From Escherichia coli (lineage in GTDB: Bacteria; Pseudomonadota; Gammaproteobacteria; Enterobacterales; Enterobacteriaceae): 64,000 nt of DNA. This document shows positions 3,661-44,599 of this stretch, piece after piece. Below the pieces are notes generated by a model. It was not told where the DNA came from. It made no database searches and saw only the letters and a list, made by a program, of their open reading frames with translations. The DNA is taken from the NCBI RefSeq assembly GCF_041886205.1, contig NZ_CP169029.1; one strand, written 5' to 3'. The position numbers and the translations under genes are program-made. The number at the start of each line of letters is the position of its first letter. The first letter of the stretch is position 1.

Positions 3661-4564
3661 GAATAACTACCTCAGCTACGACGAGGCGCATGCTTTTGAC
3701 AGAGAAATGACGGCCTGTCGTAAAGCGGGTGGAGACTGTGGCGATATTCAGAATAAATATGCTGTATTAAGCGCAGAGAACCGACAGAAATTACACATTG
3801 ATGTGGCTGCAGATCCTCTTACGGCTCTGTCCGGGGAAGATAAATGGAATATTGAGGGCGGACTCAGCGCGGCGGGCCGACCTGGCTGGCTGTATGGTTC
3901 ACTGACTAATCAGGAGGTGAAGGATTACGTGACTGAAGGCAACAGCTACGACCTGAACTATCTGAACAGTAATACGTCGAAGGGTGACAGGGCTCTGGCT
4001 TTCTTCGGGGAACCGGAAAATTACTGGGGTACGGTTGCCGGAGCGGGTTCGTTGTTAACGTCATCAGCCACGCTGACTGAAAAATTTGTCAGTGCCGGGC
4101 TGAGCTATGGGGCTAATGGTGCGGTACAAATTGGTACGGGAAATATCGGTGATAAGTTCGATTATCTCAGTTTCATGATGTCAGGCTTGACTGGTGTAGG
4201 TACAGCCGGGAAAGGATATTACGCTAACCAGTTGTTGGGTGCTGGTAGTGCTTACATGAGCAGCCAGATTGAAGGCCAGGACAGTACCGCATCAGTAGTG
4301 GGTAGCATGGCTGGTACAGGCCTAGGATATAACGTTGGTGCTTCAATTACTAATAAGTTAGAAGCTCAATACATCAAAAATCAACTGGGAATGGACGCCA
4401 GTAAATATTCACTGCAATATTCGGAAAAGTCTATCGGATACGGTATGTATCAAGGCGGACAAATGAGTTCTATACCAGGAACATTTGGTGGATTTGTTGG
4501 TTCATTCGTATCAGAAGGTGCAAGCAGCGCAACGCAAAAAGAAGTTGATGGAGACAAAAAATGA
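3656..4564 (+). CDS. Orphan cdiA-CT module 1 (VENN remnant + glycine-rich toxin domain); internal ATG at 3707
   Basis: Frame begins with [11 protein letters not shown] directly after cdiI stop, with no upstream start; Gly-rich domain ending EVDGDKK like the main CT. Confidence 0.65.
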   Translation, partial: VENNYLSYDEAHAFDREMTACRKAGGDCGDIQNKYAVLSAENRQKLHIDVAADPLTALSGEDKWNIEGGLSAAGRPGWLYGSLTNQEVKDYVTEGNSYDLNYLNSNTSKGDRALAFFGEPENYWGTVAGAGSLLTSSATLTEKFVSAGLSYGANGAVQIGTGNIGDKFDYLSFMMSGLTGVGTAGKGYYANQLLGAGSAYMSSQIEGQDSTASVVGSMAGTGLGYNVGASITNKLEAQYIKNQLGMDASKYSLQYSEKSIGYGMYQGGQMSSIPGTFGGFVGSFVSEGASSATQKEVDGDKK

Positions 4565-26459: not shown

Positions 26460-27225
26460 CCATGGTAATCCGTATTCTGGACGTGTCGCGTGCGTAACTG
26501 GCACAACGGATGAAAATATCTGGTAATAAGCCGGATAAACGTCGTCGCAGATGTGATGAGGCTGCGGATGCGGAAGTGTTAGCACGCATCCTTGATATCA
26601 TCAGCGATATGCCGACATATGGCTATCGTCGTGTCCGGGCTATTCTCAGACGGCAGTCTTAACGAAGGACTGCAGTTCGTGAATGCAAATCGCGTTTATC
26701 GAATAATGAGCGAGAATAACCTGTTGTTATTACATGACAAACCTTCACGACCGCAGAGGGAACATAAAGGCCCGAATATCGGTGAAGGAAAGCGACCCGC
26801 GCTGGTGTGCCGATGGCTTTGAGTTCGGTTGTGATGATGACGAAAAACTGCGTGTCACGTTCGCACTGGACTGTTGCGATCTTGAATCCATAGACTGGGC
26901 CGCAAGCACGGGAGGTTATGGCAAAGCAACGGTGCAGGATGTCATGTCAGGAGCGATAGAAAAACGCTTTGGCGATAGACCGGGATGGCCCATCCAGTGG
27001 CTGACCGATAACGGTTCAGCTTATACAACTCATGAAACACGGCAGTTCGCCAGAGAGTTGAATCTGGAGCTCTGCACGACGGCAGTCAGTAGCCCTCAGA
27101 GTAATGGAATGAGAGAACGGTTCGTGAAAACGATGAAGAGCGATTACATCAGTATCATACCTAAACCGGACGTGTTAACGGCAGTAAAAAACCTTGCGGA
27201 GGCGTTCGAACACTATAACGAATAG
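26460..27225 (+). pseudogene. IS3-family OrfB (DDE transposase) with frameshifts and stops
   Basis: Integrase-core homology spread over two or more frames. Confidence 0.7.
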
Positions 27226-27330
27226 CATCCTCATGGTGCCTTGGTTATCTCTCACCGAGGGAATATCAACGTCACTCGGTAACGTTAACTTAAGCTCAAC
27301 GGCTGTCTGGATATAGTGGTTCAAGGGCAC

Positions 27331-27487
27331 CTAAGGGCCTTATTTACGGTGTTTTCGCTGATTGGTTTACGCGGGTCATGTGCTCCCGTAAAGACCAGAC
27401 CATTTTCAACTGCCCATGTCTGAAGTTTTATCAGTATGGCTACAGCCTGTTTGCTGAGTGGCACAAGATGTGGTGTTCGCATCTTAT
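27331..27487 (-). pseudogene. Internal fragment of a P4-type integrase gene
   Basis: ~155 bp at ~93% identity to 43341-43497 within the intact integrase, same orientation. Confidence 0.7.
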
Positions 27488-27692
27488 GGATTCACCATTA
27501 TAGTGACATGTTCAAGATGATGATATATCTTTGAAAAGTGTTCTCTTTGCGAACGGTATAGAATTTCTAGCGTTACTTTTCATAATTACACTTTTTAGGG
27601 TTAGGCAGGCACAATCTATGCGCTGTCTTAGATAACTACATCCATTTTTACTGGACTACCACCAACAAAAATTTAGTGGTGCAGGAGAAAAC

Positions 27693-30600
27693 GTGAAGTA
27701 TCAGATAGTAGGTGGTGCTGGCCTGCACCGCAGCGAAACCAAAACAGTTGATATGATGGTTAAGCAGTTACCAGATAGTTGGTTTGGCTATGCTGGCTTA
27801 GTTGTTACTGATAGCCAAGGGTCGATGGAAATCGATATGCTAATTATTACTGCTGACCGTCTGCTATTAGTCGAGCTTAAAGAGTGGAATGGTAACATCA
27901 CATTTGAAGGGGGGAAGTGGCTGCAAAATGGTAAGTCACGAGGCAAAAGTCCCTATCAGATCAAGCGTGAGCATGCACTGCGACTAAAAGATTTGTTGCA
28001 GGAAGAGTTATCTCGTAAGCTGGGTTACTTTTTGCATGTTGAGGCTCATGTAGTGCTGTGTGGCACAGCTGGTCCTGAAAACTTGCCATTAAGTGAGAGG
28101 CGCTATGTTCATACCCGTGATGAATTCTTGACTATAGGTAACCCAAAAAATTACGAAAAGCTGGTGCAACACACTAACTTTTTTCATCTTTTTGAAGGGG
28201 GAAAGCCTCGACCAAATTCTGATGAGGCATTACCTATAATTAAGTCCTTCTTTGAAGGACCAAAAGTCAGGCCTTTGCCACTAAAAGAAAGCGGTTATCT
28301 TGCGAACGATAAGCCATTCTTTAGTCACCCTCACATGGTCTACAACGAATTCAGGGCTACCCACAAAGACAATAGTCAACACAGAGGTCTGCTACGGCAG
28401 TGGAACTTTGATGCCTTGGGTGTAGCAAACGCAATGCAAACATTGTGGGCTGAGATAGCTCTGCGTGAGACTCGAGTCGGTCGCCTAGTTCGTCATGGCA
28501 GCGCAACTATGCAGGATTATATGTTGCGTGCTGTAAGGGAACTATCCGAGGAGGATATAACTGATGATGCCCGTGAGCTGTATGAGTTACGCCGTAGTTT
28601 TAGCCGATTAGATGAGATTCTAGATAGCGAAGCTGACGGATGGAGTAAATCTGAGCGTATTGATCGCGTTCGTGCATTATTAGCTCCATTCTCGGAATTA
28701 CATAGCTTGGGTATCAGTCATTGTGATATTGACCCGCACAATCTATGGTACGCAGGGGATCAGAAGAGCATTGTCGTTACTGGCTTTGGCGCAGCCTCAC
28801 TGGAGGGACATAATAGCCTAGAGTCATTGCGTCCGATATTGCAAAGTGCTCCATATATTTTGCCCGAAGATGCTTTTGAAGAAGCAGTTGAGCCCTATCG
28901 CCTAGATGTATTCATGTTGGCTGTAATTGCTTATCGTATTTGTTTTGCAGGTGAATCATTACTGACTCCTGGACAGATGCCTGAATGGAGAGCTCCATTA
29001 ACTGATCCTTTTAGCGGTATTCTAAATAGCTGGTTTGAGCAAGCTCTTAACCTTGAGCCAAGTAAACGCTTTCCACGTGCGGACATAATGCTCAATGAGT
29101 TTAATGCAGCTACTAAGGAACATAGCCAAGAATTTGATGAAGCTAACCAGATTTATCAAGAATTAAAGCAAAACAAATTCTTTCGCGAAGGGATGAACAG
29201 CGTTGGTGTGTTAATTGAGTTTCCTCCACTTCCTGAACAGTTGTCTATGGTTTACTCTGCTCTTGCTGCTATTGCTACGACTGGCAGCATCAGTTATCAC
29301 TGTGAACAAGGTGGGAAAGCTCTGCAGGTAAAATTGTGGGATGGTGTTATTTTGACCCCTCAACAACCTGGTGTTAACCGCCGTATCCACGCTTTTAAGC
29401 AACGGATCGATAAGCTTACGCATATAAATCTGCCAACTCCTAAGGTGCAGTCCTATGGACTATTAGGACAAGGCGGCTTGTATGTAGTGAGCGAGTATGT
29501 GGATGGCCTACCGTGGTCACAGTTTATTGCTGAGAACGTGTTAGTACAATCCCAACGTTTTACAATTGCGGAAAAGTTGATCAACACCATTCATGCTTTT
29601 CATGAAAAGCAGTTACCTCATGGAGATCTTTGCCCAGAGAAACTGCTGGTACAAGTCGGGGAGCAGACAGTAATTACTCTGATTGGATTGCTTGAATTCA
29701 GTGATGAATTAACTGCAGATAATCGCTACCAGCCAGAGAATCCCGAAAGTACTGATGCTTTTGGGCGAGATTGCTTTGCAGTATATCGTATGGTGGAGGA
29801 GCTATTTAGTGAAGATATGCCAGTACTGGTGCAGGCTGAGCTAGAACGCGCAAAACAAACCGTTGACGGTATACCTATCGCGCTCGATCCTTTGCTGCAG
29901 TCAATTCGAGCACCGGAACAAGCTGAGATTAATCAAGTTGTGGCGTCTGAGTCACAGGATAAGGTAATTCCTGTTTGCTGGGGCACAGATGATTGGCCGC
30001 AAGAAGTGAAGCTTCTAGAACAAAATGATGGGATCTATTATTTTCAATGTAACTGGTCATCGAACCCACGCTTTGCGCATGAATTGCGTTGTTACATCAC
30101 TGGCCTAGGAGAGCGGCTATTGATAGACTTAGATCCTGATAATCGCACTATTAATAGAATAGTGTATGAAAAAGGATTATCGATCGAAGAAAGTATAAAG
30201 GCTGGTAAATATTCCCAGGCTAAAATTAATACTCAACTTTCATTACAACGTGGCTCACTTAATCAGCGTAATACTTTTATTGAACTACTGTTTAACCTCG
30301 AGCCAGTAATTGATGCCATCATTGAGCGAGCTAATCCTAATCAAGAGATGGATGAAGATGACTTCGATAGTAGTGAGTCAAGCCCAATTGAGTTATGGCA
30401 GGCATTATCTGATACAGAAGTAGACCTACGAGATATAGTCAACATCGACTCTACTGACTTTCAGGAATCACCGAGTGGTTGCTTACTCTACCCATATACT
30501 ACGGAATCCGGTGCTGACCTCAGCTTTGAACTTGATGATAAGATCATTGTTTATATTAAAGATAAGCGTGAATCAGTGCAATTAGGGGAATTGCAGCTAA

Positions 30601-32651
30601 GTGAGACTACGCCGAGTCTATTGGCTATTCGCTTTGATTTTGATGCTGCTCGTAAGCGAATTAGTAGCGGCAGCCAGCTACAATTGGAATCGATCCGTGA
30701 CAAATCATCAAGAGAGTTGCGTCAAAGAGCCCTTCAACGGGTAATTGAAAACAAAGCAGAGATCCAGCATCTGCCACAGTATTTTGATTACCACCAGAAA
30801 CCCTGCATGCAGCAAATGCAACCGCGGCCATCCGCGGAGACATTACGCGCACTTTATGATCAGCCTGGACAACGTTTTAATGAACAGCAGCTAATGGCAT
30901 TTCAACAGTTGGTCGAGTTTGGACCAGTTGGAGTTCTGCAGGGACCACCTGGAACAGGTAAAACAACATTTATTTCAAAATTTATTCACTATCTGTATCA
31001 ACATTGCGGTGTGAATAACATTCTTTTGGTCGGGCAATCCCATGCCTCTGTTGATAATGTAGCCATCAAGGCTCGAGAGCTCTGCCATACGAAAGGAATG
31101 GAACTGGATACAGTACGTATTGGTAATGAACTTATGATTGATGAGGGTATGCTAAGTGTTGCAACTAAAGCTCTTCAGCGACAGATTCAGCATAAATTTC
31201 ACCGTGAATATGATCTGCGAGTTAGCTCCCTAGGAAAGCGCCTAGGGATGGCCCCATTATTAGTCCAACAGTTATGTCAGTTACATCGTACGCTGAATCC
31301 CTTGATGGTGACATATGGCCAATATAGCCGTGAGCTGGATAAAGTAGAACAAATAAAGAGTAGTAGTATTAGTCATCAAGAGCGACTGGCTGAATTATTA
31401 GAACAAAGCAATCAGCTTAAACTGCGAACACAAGAAATTATTAACTCAATATTCGATGACAGCTTGCTGAAAACTCTTGTCTATGATGAAACCTTGATAA
31501 GACAGTTGGCTGAGCAAGTTGCCATACAATACAATTATAACAATCCAGAGAACCTTGAACGTTTTATGCAGCTATTGGAAATGAGCCAAGAGTGGATGGA
31601 TGTATTACGCGGCGGCGAGGCTGGATTTGATCGATTTATGTTCAAAAGTAAGCGATTGGTTTGTGGAACTCTTGTTGGTGTTGGGAATCGTCGACTAGAA
31701 CTAGCTGAGTCCAGCTTTGATTGGGTAATAGTTGATGAGGCTGGCCGAGCACAAGCTGCTGAATTGATGGTAGCGCTGCAATCAGGCAAGCGGGTGCTGT
31801 TGGTAGGGGATCATAAACAATTGCCACCATTCTATCATCAACAGCATCTTAAGTTAGCCTCTAAGAAATTAGAACTCGGGAAAGGGATCTTTTATGAGTC
31901 TGATTTTGAACGTGCTTTTAAAGCAACAGGCGGCGTAACACTCGATACTCAATATCGAATGGTAGAACCAATTGGCGAGTTAGTATCGGAGTGCTTTTAC
32001 GCTCAAGATATCGGTAAACTGCATTCATCGAGGAAAGTCTCGCCAGATTGGTATTCCAAGTTACCAATCCCTTGGAACAAAACTGTTACTTGGATCGATA
32101 GTTCGAGCCCTAATGAAGCAGGTGCAGAAGAACATAAGGGTAATGGTCGTTACTATAATCAACGAGAAGTCCGGCTACTGCTAGAGGCTTTGCAGTCATT
32201 GTCGAGTGATGGCTGCATTGCACAGCTTGAGCAAACTATTACCACAGAACAGCCATATCCTATTGGTATAATCACAATGTATCGTCAGCAAAAAGAGGAA
32301 ATTGACAATGCTATCAGTCGGGCTGAATGGGCTGCATCGTTACGTGGTTTGATCAAGATCGATACCGTTGATTCATATCAGGGCCATGAAAACAAGATAA
32401 TTATCCTCAGTCTGGTTCGCGATAATCCCAACAAACTACAAGGTTTCCTGCGCGACGCGCCGCGAATAAACGTTGCTATTTCGCGAGCTCAAGAAAGGTT
32501 ATTGATTCTGGGAGCAAGGCGTATGTGGTCAAAGACCAATAATGATTCAGCACTTGGAAACGTTCATGAATTTATTAGTAAACAGGTTGCAGTAGATGAA
32601 CCCAACTACCAAATCCTGTGTGGTCAAAGTCTGCTTGGAGATAACAACTAA
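27693..32651 (+). CDS. 1652-aa multidomain protein: N-terminal NERD-like domain, two protein-kinase-like domains, C-terminal SF1 (Upf1/DNA2-like) helicase
   Basis: GTG start with AGGAG RBS; NERD-like EIDMLIITADRLLLVELKEW; kinase-like HCDIDPHN...TGFG...DVFMLAVIAY and HGDLCPEKLLV...DAFGRDCFAVY; helicase Walker [10 protein letters not shown], Walker B VIVDEAG, motifs LVGDHKQLPP, DSYQGHE, VAISRAQERLLILG. Confidence 0.8.
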   Translation: MKYQIVGGAGLHRSETKTVDMMVKQLPDSWFGYAGLVVTDSQGSMEIDMLIITADRLLLVELKEWNGNITFEGGKWLQNGKSRGKSPYQIKREHALRLKDLLQEELSRKLGYFLHVEAHVVLCGTAGPENLPLSERRYVHTRDEFLTIGNPKNYEKLVQHTNFFHLFEGGKPRPNSDEALPIIKSFFEGPKVRPLPLKESGYLANDKPFFSHPHMVYNEFRATHKDNSQHRGLLRQWNFDALGVANAMQTLWAEIALRETRVGRLVRHGSATMQDYMLRAVRELSEEDITDDARELYELRRSFSRLDEILDSEADGWSKSERIDRVRALLAPFSELHSLGISHCDIDPHNLWYAGDQKSIVVTGFGAASLEGHNSLESLRPILQSAPYILPEDAFEEAVEPYRLDVFMLAVIAYRICFAGESLLTPGQMPEWRAPLTDPFSGILNSWFEQALNLEPSKRFPRADIMLNEFNAATKEHSQEFDEANQIYQELKQNKFFREGMNSVGVLIEFPPLPEQLSMVYSALAAIATTGSISYHCEQGGKALQVKLWDGVILTPQQPGVNRRIHAFKQRIDKLTHINLPTPKVQSYGLLGQGGLYVVSEYVDGLPWSQFIAENVLVQSQRFTIAEKLINTIHAFHEKQLPHGDLCPEKLLVQVGEQTVITLIGLLEFSDELTADNRYQPENPESTDAFGRDCFAVYRMVEELFSEDMPVLVQAELERAKQTVDGIPIALDPLLQSIRAPEQAEINQVVASESQDKVIPVCWGTDDWPQEVKLLEQNDGIYYFQCNWSSNPRFAHELRCYITGLGERLLIDLDPDNRTINRIVYEKGLSIEESIKAGKYSQAKINTQLSLQRGSLNQRNTFIELLFNLEPVIDAIIERANPNQEMDEDDFDSSESSPIELWQALSDTEVDLRDIVNIDSTDFQESPSGCLLYPYTTESGADLSFELDDKIIVYIKDKRESVQLGELQLSETTPSLLAIRFDFDAARKRISSGSQLQLESIRDKSSRELRQRALQRVIENKAEIQHLPQYFDYHQKPCMQQMQPRPSAETLRALYDQPGQRFNEQQLMAFQQLVEFGPVGVLQGPPGTGKTTFISKFIHYLYQHCGVNNILLVGQSHASVDNVAIKARELCHTKGMELDTVRIGNELMIDEGMLSVATKALQRQIQHKFHREYDLRVSSLGKRLGMAPLLVQQLCQLHRTLNPLMVTYGQYSRELDKVEQIKSSSISHQERLAELLEQSNQLKLRTQEIINSIFDDSLLKTLVYDETLIRQLAEQVAIQYNYNNPENLERFMQLLEMSQEWMDVLRGGEAGFDRFMFKSKRLVCGTLVGVGNRRLELAESSFDWVIVDEAGRAQAAELMVALQSGKRVLLVGDHKQLPPFYHQQHLKLASKKLELGKGIFYESDFERAFKATGGVTLDTQYRMVEPIGELVSECFYAQDIGKLHSSRKVSPDWYSKLPIPWNKTVTWIDSSSPNEAGAEEHKGNGRYYNQREVRLLLEALQSLSSDGCIAQLEQTITTEQPYPIGIITMYRQQKEEIDNAISRAEWAASLRGLIKIDTVDSYQGHENKIIILSLVRDNPNKLQGFLRDAPRINVAISRAQERLLILGARRMWSKTNNDSALGNVHEFISKQVAVDEPNYQILCGQSLLGDNN

Positions 32652-34198
32652 TGTCAGAACCACGTCTGGGTAATCTGATTACCGTTTTACTACCTGCGCG
32701 TAGTTACAAGATCAACTGCGCTTTGACCACTGAAAAACTGATGCCTGGAATTGAACAGTTTGCATGTCGCTTGCTGCTGATTTTTGATCAACTCTATCCC
32801 AGCGAGTTACAGAATTACTTTGGTCTAACTGATCGTGAGCGAGAGGTATTGCTTGATGGGTTGCTGGCTAACAGACTGATCAACATTAATCCTGATGGGC
32901 ATATTGAGGCTAGCTCATTCCTACGTAAGCATGCAGCTAATAATGGTGGGAAGCCAAGTTTAGTTAAATATCAAGAATGTACGGAGGAAGTTGCATTCGA
33001 TCTACTAACTCTTTCGATATGTAAACCGCAACCAAATCGTCGTTTTACTTCTGGACTGCCAGAGCTATTGCCGCGGCATCAGATCGGGGGAGATGCTGCT
33101 GCGGTAACAGAGGCTTTTAGTTCCCAGTTTAGGCACCATCTTTTGCTCAGCCGCAACAGCGAGTATGAGCGTCAACGGACTAAATTATATAAGATAATGG
33201 GCTGTAGTTCGCATGAGATGGTGCAGCTCCCAATAGAGATAGAGGTTAGCTACGGTGTTTCTGCTGGGAGCATTGAGCCGCAGAAATTTACTCGTTCCTA
33301 TGAATATTTAGGTAACACCCGGCTGCCGCTTTCAAACGAGCTGGAAGCTCATATCGCAGATTTTTTGGGAGAACATAAACTAGATGAATTCGGTATCGAC
33401 TGTGAAGATTTCTGTAAACTAGCAAATGATAAAGTGTTGTTACAATTTGCTAATGGTTATAAGTTCAACTATTCCGGCTGGATAGAGGCTCGTGAACAAC
33501 GTAAAACTGGCTACGGTACTTCATTGACTACCGGCATGTTAGGGGCTGTTTATTTGCCGCACAATTCTAAGCTGTTCATTAGTATGTTGCATAATGCATT
33601 ACGTGATTATATAGGTAAAACAGCTCCAAAAGCGCTGTGGTATAGCAGTAAAGTACCACTGTGGGGAGCTAATGGTAGTCAACTTTCGCGTTTTACTCGC
33701 GCTCTAGGCGATATACTTGGCAATTATGCCGATGATAAGATTGCTCGCATTTCGCTTTTACACTCAAGTGCAGATGAAGGTGAAAAACGTCAAGAGCGTA
33801 AGCGGCACTTAGGTCGTTTTCCTACCGGTATTGGCCTTACTTCAGAGGCTAAATTTGATCGTTTGGAGATCCTCTTAATTCCTGATGTGATTGCTTTGGT
33901 GCAATACCACGGTCAACCTAATTCTGATAGTGCATTAACCCTGCCGATTGGTTATATAACTGTTGAGCCAGAGCGTTTAGAATTACTTAAAAAACTAATG
34001 ATTAAGCGAACTGAAGGGGCTGTTGCAACCATTACTTGGTCTGAATCAAAATTTGAAAATTTAGCTTCGCTATTACCTGTTGAGTTTCTGATTAAACTGA
34101 ATAAGAAAAGCGGTGAAGATGTGGATGCTGCAATAAAAAAAATGCAGATCTATAACCGTGCTGAAACCGCACGGGCAATTTTATCGCTACGCAAGTAG
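32651..34198 (+). CDS. 515-aa protein of unknown function, translationally coupled to the upstream gene
   Basis: Start ATG overlaps the upstream TAA (TAATG); no recognisable motifs. Confidence 0.6.
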   Translation: MSEPRLGNLITVLLPARSYKINCALTTEKLMPGIEQFACRLLLIFDQLYPSELQNYFGLTDREREVLLDGLLANRLININPDGHIEASSFLRKHAANNGGKPSLVKYQECTEEVAFDLLTLSICKPQPNRRFTSGLPELLPRHQIGGDAAAVTEAFSSQFRHHLLLSRNSEYERQRTKLYKIMGCSSHEMVQLPIEIEVSYGVSAGSIEPQKFTRSYEYLGNTRLPLSNELEAHIADFLGEHKLDEFGIDCEDFCKLANDKVLLQFANGYKFNYSGWIEAREQRKTGYGTSLTTGMLGAVYLPHNSKLFISMLHNALRDYIGKTAPKALWYSSKVPLWGANGSQLSRFTRALGDILGNYADDKIARISLLHSSADEGEKRQERKRHLGRFPTGIGLTSEAKFDRLEILLIPDVIALVQYHGQPNSDSALTLPIGYITVEPERLELLKKLMIKRTEGAVATITWSESKFENLASLLPVEFLIKLNKKSGEDVDAAIKKMQIYNRAETARAILSLRK

Positions 34199-34412
34199 CA
34201 TTTATATTGCAACGAATAAATTTTTCTAGGTTGCTATGAACTAGCTAAAGGGCAACAAATAGATAAACGGCGTTATTCATGTCAAATGAGATAATGTTAA
34301 ATTGATAGGGATTTATACCCCGCCGGCCATTTTGAATGGTCGGAGTTGTTATAAACGTTAAACCGCCCCGGAAATCCTGGAGACTAAACTCCCTGAGAAA
34401 GAGGTAAACAGG

Positions 34413-39096: not shown

Positions 39097-42000
39097 CTAA
39101 ACCTGACGCCTCTCAAGACTATTATAAATAGCCTCAATCTCACCCTTCAGGTTATCACCGCAATAAACCATTGAGGTATCGTATCGTTCATATCGCGCTT
39201 CCCGTGTCGCACTAAACCAGTTGAACGATCCCACGCACAGCAAACCATCATCACCAATAACAATTTTGCTATGAACACGGTTTACCAGCTTTGTAGCAAT
39301 ACCCAGCGCATTCAGTTTCTCCAGCGCCGCTTTAAAGTTTTGCTGCTTCTCTTTTCGCTTCTCAAAATCATTATGTTCAGTGTTGTAGCTTCTGTCAGTG
39401 ACTATCGTGACGTTAATTCCACGTGAACACGCCGCAATCATGGAATCAAGAAAACCTGTTTGCTCCAGCCTTTGCCAGGTCAGCCATGGAGAAACTATCG
39501 TGATGTGTTTACTGGTATTTTCAAATGTCTGATTCAGGAAATTATCATGTTGCTCCACACCATGAAGTGTGTAGATTTTGGTCCCGGAGGTTTTTAAATC
39601 CTTACGCTCTTTATAATCAAAAGAGAGCGCATTCTTCTCTGACTCAAAGAGGTATTTTGCCAGTAATCCCCGTGGAGATGAGGCTGGCTGGACCTCAAAC
39701 AGGTCCATATCGCCGAAGACCAGAAAACTGTCCTTCGCACGGGAGACTGCAACATTCAGCATGCTGTTATCGCTATCAATAAACCCGCCGTCTTCATGTT
39801 TTGAATAGACTGGCGAGAATATCACAATCGCTCTTTCCGCTCCCTGAAGAGAGTGCACGGTGCCCACTGTGAGCGACTTTTCATTCGAGCCTGTACTGAT
39901 ACCTTGTTTGCCCAGCGCCTGTTTGATAGTGGATACCTGAGCGCTAAAAGGCGTCACGATACCGACAACTTCATGAAGCGATTTACCGTAATGCGCTTCA
40001 ATATTTTGTTGGTTCTCTGCCAACCAGACCGCTATCGTTTCAGCCTCAAGCAAATTATATCGACTTCCACTACTTGCCAGCTCTCCTTTACCATCAATAT
40101 GGAGATACCCCATTGCGGGCATTAAATTGCTCTCTTCACGCCCTCTTTTAGGCAACAACTTACCGTGATAGCAGAGCGTATTACAGTATCCAATAATATT
40201 GTCGTAGCACCGGCGGTGTTCATATAGGGACATACCACGAGCCAGTTCGGGATCATATTGATAGCGCGAAGCAAACTGCGCTATTTTCATAACGCTGCCA
40301 GATGCGGCACTTTTACCAAGGTCTGCGATTGCCGTATATTTCTCGGTAATCTCTTCTTGCGTACTGCCAGACAGAATTTTTTCCGCCAGCATGTTACCGA
40401 CATCAATCGCAGGAGCAATACTCCATATTGGCGGGAGCTGCTCCGTATCGCCAATCACTAATGCCTTCTTAGCTAATGCAAACGAGGCAGCAGCCACTTC
40501 AGGAAGCACCTGCCCGGCTTCATCGACAATGAGTAAATCGGCAAAATCATACAAATAACTTTTCTCGAATTTACGCTGTCCTTTGTGCTCACTTATCTGC
40601 ATATTGCCGGGCAGCATATAGCATGTCATCACCACACATGGAGTGAGTTTCATTCGACGTTGCCAACGGGCAGTTACCCCTTTAGCGCCTTTTTTCTTCT
40701 TCTCTTCCTGCAGATCATCAATGCTGGCCATATCCATCAGCCAACGACCTTCCCAGTAGTGAGTCGTCAGTAAAAATGCAGGGAAGCGAATCTGCGTATC
40801 AGCCAGTTCATCGGCCTGTGAGAAGCTCAGTTCCTCGTCGCCCTCATACCCTAAATTAAGAGCCAGTCTCTGCCACTCCTGAACCGCCTGCTGTTCTTTA
40901 AGAATGATTTCATGGGCGGAATCAATCTGCTGCCGGTATGTTGTTTGCTCGCGCTCAGCGGAATTGAGCAGCCCATCAATATTACGTTCGATAGTTTCAG
41001 GATCAGACCACTGATTTCCTGCAATCAGCGCACCTAATTTATCTTCGAGAAACAGCTGTATTTGGTACTGTCGCTTACTGCGAACCACCGGGAGCCAGGA
41101 AAATAATGAATAGATCAGTGATTCACCGGCGCGATATTTTTTCCATTCCGTTTTAGCACTTTTCAGTAGAGTGATTTTTTGTTCTTGTCCGGAAAGTAAT
41201 TTATTTAAATTATCGAGATATTGCTCAATGTCGTTAGCAATAAGCTCACGCGCAGCCCGTACCTGGCTTAACGTTTGCCATGTTGCGTTCAGTCTTATCA
41301 GTTGCTCGGATTTTGCTGCCAACTGACCATGCAGGAGTTCAATGACCTTTTCAGGGGATGAACAATCTTTTTCAGGAAAGGCTGCCTTAGCCTTCTCCAG
41401 ATAAAACAGCAGTGCATCCTCTACATACTCTTTTGACTCAACCTGGTTGAAGAAATCTTCAGTTTGATATTTTTTGGCTGCCTCAGCTTTACGAGTGCTT
41501 GAGGGAAAATAAGCGCCGAAGCTTTTCAGCTCAGGTAACCATCGTCCGGCCATTGCACCAGTGCCCTGTGAAAAATCTTTCCCGAACGCTTCGATAATGT
41601 TCGTTACAGCCTGGTTGTTCGTTGAAGTCGCGATAATTACCGGAGGCTCAGATTTTTCGAGAGCCGCTCTGGCCCACTGCGTGGCGATGATAGAAAGCAC
41701 CAGCGTGGTTTTTCCGGTTCCCGGAGGTCCATTAACAGCAAGGATATCGCCATGTCTTGCATCCAGAAAATGGCTTAAGGCATCGCGCTGAGCCTTTGCC
41801 AGCGGAAACTTATCTCCGGAGTGTCCAAGCCTGTCGCTGAATTTTGCGCCTGGGGCCAGCAAAGACTCTGCAGCATGAACCTCTCGCGAGGCGAAGCGAT
41901 TGAAGAGCGGCACAACCTTCTTGCAAACAAGCAGGTGATCATAAAGAGAAAGGATATGGAAACAGGCACCGCCAGATTGCGCCGTTTTAACAATATAACC

Positions 42001-42612
42001 GTGCTCAGCGAGTTCATATTGCTCAGGATTTTTAATCCAGTCGCCGGCAACGTTCTTCAGCAGCCTCTCTGAATCATCCAGATATTGACGCCACTCCTGC
42101 TGCAAGGCTGCATATCGTGCTTCCCGTTCTTCATCCGTTTCGGCAGTCTTATCAATGCCGTCATCAAAGTTGATAGAGAACGAGGTATGGATTGTCTTGT
42201 ATTTGTCATACTGCCCAATCTCACCAATCGAAAATGCTCCTTTTGGCAAAGGTTCAAGCAGGTCTCTGGGAATGGAGGTCGCTGGCGTCGGATATAAAAA
42301 ACCCTCACGGCTTAGCAAGGCTGGCGTCACTATCGGGGTAACAATATCAGGCGCGCCTGCGGAACGGTCCTTACCATGCTGCAGTAACCGGAAATAAACT
42401 TTTGGGCGCAAGATGACATCGACCGTTTCGACATCGTCTTTTTCTCCCTTAAAAAATTTACTGACAATCGCTTCGTCAAGACGTCCCGCCGCTATCCCAT
42501 GCCAGTGAGTGAAATTTTTGGCGTCTTTCCGTTCAAAACTGCCCTTTCCTGACTCAGCATCCGCAAGCGAGTTGCGCCAGTATGAGGTAAACCCTAAAGC
42601 ATTTTCATCCAT
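39097..42612 (-). CDS. SF1 helicase fused to C-terminal PLD-family nuclease domain (Mokosh type II-like)
   Basis: 1171 aa; Walker [10 protein letters not shown], Walker B LIVDEAGQ, helicase motifs; C-terminal HxK-x4-D-x6-GSxN ([20 protein letters not shown]). Confidence 0.7.
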
Positions 42613-44523: not shown

Positions 44524-44599
44524 TGGTGCCCGGACTCGGAATCGAACCAAGGACACGGGGATTTTCAATCCCCTGCTCTACCGACTGAGCTATCCGGGC
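44524..44599 (-). tRNA. pheV: tRNA-Phe (GAA)
   Basis: 76-nt match to the canonical E. coli tRNA-Phe including CCA end; location next to yqgA and speC. Confidence 0.95.

Follow-up and report, generated by a model that had tools for sequence, protein, structure and literature searches.

Within the 64,000-nt window of Escherichia coli DNA analyzed here (contig NZ_CP169029.1, assembly GCF_041886205.1), the ORF listing places two consecutive genes on the plus strand (Table 1): mkoA, which has a GTG start and encodes a protein of 1652 aa, and mkoB, which has an ATG start and encodes a protein of 515 aa. The stop codon of the first gene and the start codon of the second have one base in common, in the junction AAC TAATG TCA, and this 1-nt overlap bears out the translational coupling of the large protein to its partner gene put forward in the initial annotation. 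A Shine-Dalgarno sequence, AGGAG, precedes the GTG of mkoA at positions 27683-27687, and four orthologs share invariant residues at positions 7-15 of the protein, in support of this start. Both ORFs are real, as such a length together with the E-values given below cannot be attained by chance.

The non-coding stretch ahead of mkoA is presumably the home of the native promoter. Promoter-like hexamers at 27476-27504 and 27503-27531 did not rise above chance when scanned against shuffled sequence, and neither the promoter nor the terminator scans of the operon's surroundings exceeded the shuffled expectation, so that no promoter is claimed for the operon.

The two genes lie in a low-GC island spanning roughly 20-44 kb of the window, with a tRNA-Phe gene at 44524-44599, remnants of IS3 and of an integrase upstream of the operon, and transposase, IS66 and integrase remnants downstream of it. 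The same island holds a type III CBASS and a Mokosh type II system (MkoC), and the tRNA-associated island with mobile-element remnants and other defense cargo that had been described at first is found here in all its parts. No distal att repeat matching the tRNA-Phe 3′ end was found in the window beyond the tRNA copy itself, and the far boundary of the island is therefore either outside the window or degraded. Among the E. coli matches listed, a common integrase fragment was dominant.

Table 1. Coordinates of the mkoA-mkoB operon, its domains and associated features in the window.
Feature	Position	Strand	Evidence or remark
Upstream non-coding region with IS3/integrase remnants	27138..27692	+	Inside the published functional CFE331 clone
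mkoA	27693..32651	+	RefSeq WP_000877065.1, 'AAA domain-containing protein'; PADLOC MkoA
MkoA NERD (PD-(D/E)xK-type) nuclease-like domain, aa 14-122	27732..28058	+	PF08378; putative catalytic D48, E61, K63
MkoA kinase-like domain 1, about aa 205-486	28305..29150	+	Pfam Pkinase; motif alignment
MkoA kinase-like domain 2, about aa 540-675, Bud32/RIO-like	29310..29717	+	PADLOC PD-T4-6, NCBIfam Bud32
MkoA conserved middle region, about aa 740-1040, between kinases and helicase	29910..30812	+	Numerous columns without variation in an alignment of four MkoA proteins
MkoA SF1 Upf1/Dna2-like helicase core, aa 1062-1609	30876..32519	+	AAA_11 + AAA_12; Walker A/B and motifs III-VI intact
mkoB	32651..34198	+	RefSeq WP_001294844.1, 'hypothetical protein'; PADLOC MkoB
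MkoB winged helix-turn-helix (MarR/ArsR-like), aa 33-97	32747..32941	+	
MkoB C-terminal PLD-superfamily fold with degenerate HKD motif, aa 293-464	33527..34042	+	Fold search with the isolated domain
MkoC (Mokosh type II)	39097-42612	-	5 kb from the operon

Domain organization of MkoA and MkoB

Pfam, PADLOC and PDB matches agree on the architecture first read from the large protein, where a NERD domain, two kinase-like domains and an SF1 helicase of the Upf1/Dna2 type follow each other in a single polypeptide. Relatives of MkoA were collected with its N-terminal 760 aa as query, which retrieved 12 proteins, most of them truncated, and these were supplemented with the mkoA genes found at mkoB loci. 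The NERD match (E 7.8e-14) contains a complete predicted PD-(D/E)xK triad, of the form D...(D/E)-x-K; its residues D48, E61 and K63 do not vary among 18 relatives, one of which is the experimentally verified MkoA of SEC470.

The kinase signal is more diffuse. Pfam Pkinase matches aa 317-418 (E 1.5e-4) and, weakly, aa 595-657, while the PD-T4-6 kinase models of PADLOC match aa 306-480 and aa 563-667 with values of about 1e-12 to 1e-14, the second region reaching about 1e-12 to 1e-13, and the NCBIfam Bud32 model matches aa 570-673. The first domain retains an HxD..N catalytic loop (H343, D345, N350) but lacks the canonical motif set of eukaryotic-like kinases (beta3 lysine, HRD Asp, DFG Asp), since an arginine (Arg235) occupies the beta3 lysine position and none of 18 relatives has an aspartate at the DFG-equivalent; judged from these motifs, the domain is probably a pseudokinase or else a kinase of atypical kind. 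In the second domain K547 and H643-G-D645 are kept, and the E. coli/Salmonella clade carries two substitutions, N650K in the catalytic loop and D668E at the DFG-equivalent. A reading of the system where the kinases are the effectors, so that the helicase would sense the infection and phosphorylation of host or phage proteins by MkoA would lead to abortive infection, as with Stk2, draws on the conservation of both kinase-like domains across the family and on the beta3 lysine, HGD and D-x-G motif that most relatives retain in the second one. We consider it improbable, given that all relatives lack both the beta3 lysine and the DFG aspartate in the first domain, that the Pfam kinase scores are weak, and that the clade of the window bears the two substitutions in the second domain, yet apparently the same locus is active in defense.

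No Pfam domain was found in the conserved middle region that follows. The helicase core, on the other side, is matched by AAA_11 at aa 1062-1382 (E 3e-46) and by AAA_12 at aa 1402-1609 (E 1.7e-44), and a four-way alignment of orthologs shows its Walker A (GPPGTGKT, aa 1084-1091), its DEAG box (from aa 1348) and the later helicase motifs to be invariant. In a PDB profile search, the nearest solved helicases were Nam7/Upf1, Dna2, Sen1 and IGHMBP2 (1e-28 to 1e-18), with Dna2, a DNA helicase-nuclease, scoring nearly the same as Upf1.

The partner protein had been described as devoid of recognizable motifs, which holds at the level of sequence profiles and fails at the level of the fold. MkoB gave no Pfam match even at E<=10, PLD included, no NCBIfam match and no PDB profile match at E<=10, and hhalign comparisons with the HTH-PLD MkoB of ETEC H10407 and with the canonical PLD of the neighboring MkoC were not significant. 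A fold search with the isolated C-terminal domain was the only approach to recognize a PLD-superfamily fold, which comes after a winged helix and an additional beta-rich middle domain. Its active-site motif, H-x-K-x4-D...G-S/T-x-N in canonical enzymes, is incomplete: H420 is retained, a glutamine stands at +2 where the lysine should be, and G434 (+14) and T437 (+17) follow. Across the family, H420 is present in 130 of 155 sequences (84%), E406 in 99% and N305 in about 92%, with G434 and T/S437 at the exact HKD spacing from H420, whereas the +2 position is variable, with no lysine. Owing to this glutamine and to the variability of the position, MkoB is classed as a PLD-fold protein and not as a PLD enzyme.

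The opposite view, where MkoB would be the nuclease effector, using H420 with E406, N305 and a basic residue supplied from elsewhere, and NERD would be a sensor or regulator, takes its strength from the fold itself and from this conserved constellation around H420, which could form a non-canonical catalytic site in MkoB. To our knowledge, every active enzyme of the PLD superfamily requires the HKD lysine, and together with the lack of profile similarity to canonical PLDs this makes a catalytic MkoB unlikely in our opinion. The published definition of Mokosh does describe MkoB as a PLD nuclease (Millman et al., Cury et al.), although the MkoB of SEC470 was annotated by Millman et al. as 'HTH' only.

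Relatives among known defense systems

The operon matches named defense profiles over almost its whole length. The PADLOC MkoA profile PDLC03921 aligns with aa 2-1642 of the large protein (profile positions 2-1598 of 1607; E=0, 1303.6 bits), and the MkoB profile PDLC03923 with aa 8-456 of its partner (positions 11-439 of 454; E 1.1e-61, 207 bits), so that the two profile matches and the adjacency on the same strand by which PADLOC and DefenseFinder define Mokosh type I are all present. Regarding the domains by which this type was described (Millman et al., 2022), MkoA has a COG1112/Upf1-like helicase whose ATP-binding site is intact and a fold-level Ser/Thr-kinase signal with atypical catalytic motifs, and the PLD-family domain of the partner is present in MkoB at the level of the fold. 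NERD was already listed as a Mokosh type I domain in a 2023 review. With high confidence, we assign the region 27693-34198 to Mokosh type I, in its long-MkoA subtype (MkoA PDLC03921 plus MkoB PDLC03923; 'Mokosh_Type_I_A' in DefenseFinder nomenclature).

A gene of 1615-1657 aa with NERD, kinase, AAA_11 and AAA_12 domains lies directly upstream of every MkoB homolog examined, and the pairing recurs in five distant loci, from Acinetobacter, Pseudomonas, Serratia and a contig of a conjugative element, whose neighboring genes are otherwise unrelated. Within the genomic islands of E. coli, mkoA and mkoB travel together as a single two-gene cassette.

Two experimentally verified systems frame the subtype (Millman et al., 2022). 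The MkoA of E. coli SEC470 (SG199), annotated 'Kinase-Helicase', also has 1652 aa and the same NERD-kinase-helicase order, and its pair, with an MkoB of 478 aa, falls in the same PADLOC profiles. Homology with the proteins of the window is significant, with identities of 28% for the MkoA N-terminus (E 1e-41) and 23% for MkoB (E 5e-15). SEC470 belongs to the same subtype but to a remote branch of it, and a serine replaces N350 of kinase-1 in its clade. The Mokosh type I of ETEC H10407 (SG202) likewise consists of two genes, for a kinase and Upf1-like helicase protein and for an HTH-containing partner. However, its MkoA has 1215 aa and begins directly with the kinase, without NERD, and its MkoB carries a canonical HKD motif (GSHAKIIVCD...GSCNW). 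The N-terminal approximately 250 residues of both types of MkoB are related (PDLC03922 matches at 1e-12 on family members), in contrast to the C-terminal halves of the H10407 and window proteins, which have no profile-level similarity. The neighboring MkoC, a type whose profile matches the MkoA helicase at 3.8e-30, also unites an Upf1-like SF1 helicase with a PLD-fold domain, but it does so in one polypeptide without NERD, kinase or HTH and with the canonical motif HSKIVIGD...GSFNW.

The N-terminal arrangement of MkoA, with NERD followed by a Ser/Thr kinase, is shared by PglW of BREX and MAD6 of MADS, neither of which has an Upf1-like helicase. The NCBIfam models match its N-terminal 420-486 residues (aa 10-486) at 5e-38 for MAD6 and 3e-22 for PglW, and PADLOC PglW does so at 2.3e-22. 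Membership in these families was rejected, with 131 bits against a cut-off of 460 for MAD6 and 78.3 against 990 for PglW; no pglX, pglZ or MADS genes are adjacent, the neighbors being the CBASS, IS remnants and MkoC.

The initial annotation had proposed an undescribed anti-phage system, and had set beforehand an HMM match to a named, characterized system as the outcome that speaks against it. The defense reading is sustained by the PADLOC matches and by the literature, in which apparently the same locus was cloned and blocks phages, whereas its novelty is not: the full-length MkoA and MkoB matches are of precisely that kind, SEC470 is a verified homolog of identical architecture, and the locus of E. 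coli CFE331 has been named Mokosh_Type_I_A and tested experimentally. The idea of a system distinct from all named ones can only invoke the fact that no NCBIfam model attains its cut-off and the bare RefSeq names, a real annotation gap that is also the source of the 'undescribed' reading, and we give it practically no weight. This is an already-known system, catalogued and experimentally supported, which a run of DefenseFinder or PADLOC labels at once.

Phage restriction and possible roles of the domains

'Mokosh_Type_I_A' was cloned from the uropathogenic E. coli CFE331 in a HIDEN-SEQ preprint, where DefenseFinder assigned the locus to MkoA_A and MkoB_A (doi 10.1101/2025.11.20.689424). The cloning primers map to 27138-27161 (one mismatch) and 34271-34290 (two mismatches) of the window, bracketing the operon, and the reverse primer for the CFE331 CBASS has an exact match. 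Upstream of the operon, CFE331 and the window share a type III CBASS at the same distance in genes, and the CFE331 gene numbers, from CBASS_III (03965-03969) to Mokosh (03975-03976), fit the gene order of the window. The CFE331 and window operons thus appear to be the same locus, although the primer mismatches make the two alleles orthologous, without proving them identical. The same one and two mismatches occur in a urine isolate, strain 222.

The CFE331 clone restricts T4 delta-alt, mutants of Bas37, and Bas54, and more generally T-even phages that lack either Alt or DNA glucosylation; the escape routes of T-even phages are the glucosylation of hmC-DNA and the ADP-ribosyltransferase Alt (doi 10.1101/2025.11.20.689424). 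Such a pattern is consistent with a system by which phage DNA is read or cut and which the modification of a protein can turn off.

A possible sequence of events starts with the coupled translation of MkoA and MkoB, which would supply both proteins in a fixed ratio and lead to a complex. The SF1 motor of MkoA would load on the phage nucleic acid and translocate along it with ATP, MkoB would bind or sense nucleic acid through its winged helix and its catalytically degenerate PLD-like domain without being the nuclease, and the cleavage would fall to the intact NERD domain. The kinase-like domains would be mainly regulatory or scaffold modules, kinase-1 being devoid of the Mg-binding aspartate in the whole family. 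The invariant NERD triad, the invariant helicase motifs, a PLD fold without the HKD lysine and the dependence of phage escape on DNA glucosylation all count in favor of this scheme. Nucleic-acid binding by MkoB is supported by one of its relatives, which carries two dsRNA-binding motifs, and the absence of NERD from the PLD-bearing H10407 subtype is what could be expected if one domain or the other is the nuclease. Taken as a whole, with helicase motor, MkoB sensor and NERD cutter in one coupled complex, we find the mechanism plausible, with doubt slightly outweighing confidence. The one systematic attempt to purify Mokosh type I failed.

The nature of the target is a matter of its own. An RNA or RNA/DNA-hybrid target was proposed by Millman et al. 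and Cury et al., and in a piRNA-like model the Upf1-like helicase would recognize phage transcripts, dsRNA or R-loops, followed by RNA degradation or growth arrest. The RNA helicases Nam7/Upf1 and Sen1 are indeed the best solved relatives of the MkoA helicase, which by its closeness to them as well as to Dna2 could act on RNA or R-loops, and the dsRNA-binding motifs on the MkoB relative point the same way. The eukaryotic piRNA pathway combines Upf1/MOV10L1 helicases with Zucchini/PLD6, but Zucchini is a nuclease with a full HKD motif, and the NERD, kinase and winged-helix domains of the operon have no counterpart there. The nearly equal score of Dna2 and the dependence of T-even escape on DNA glucosyltransferases count against an RNA target, and so does the PD-(D/E)xK fold of NERD, whose members are mostly DNases; on balance, we hold RNA as the target to be unlikely.

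As for the evolution of the subtype, NERD of MkoA may have taken over the nuclease role from the MkoB PLD domain in the long-MkoA ('I_A') branch; the PLD fold would then persist as a dead sensor or adaptor, as in TrmB and FAM83, and kinase-1 would be a pseudokinase. This proposal is tentative, and our doubts about it clearly exceed our confidence. The archaeal regulators TrmB and TrmBL2 do combine a winged helix with a non-catalytic PLD-like sensor domain; on the other hand, they have no sequence similarity to MkoB, lack its beta-rich middle domain, and are sugar-responsive transcription factors unpaired with a helicase. If the transfer were true, Mokosh type I would be one name for two machines that differ in mechanism, and the piRNA-like model of a helicase with a PLD would be inapplicable to the I_A branch. 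The remaining interest of the locus is its mechanism, for which D48/E61/K63 of NERD, K1090 of Walker A, H420/E406/N305 of MkoB and K547/D645 of kinase-2 are candidate residues; for the specific hypothesis of a dead PLD sensor that works with a NERD nuclease, an assay with T4 delta-alt and glucosyltransferase mutants already exists for this locus.

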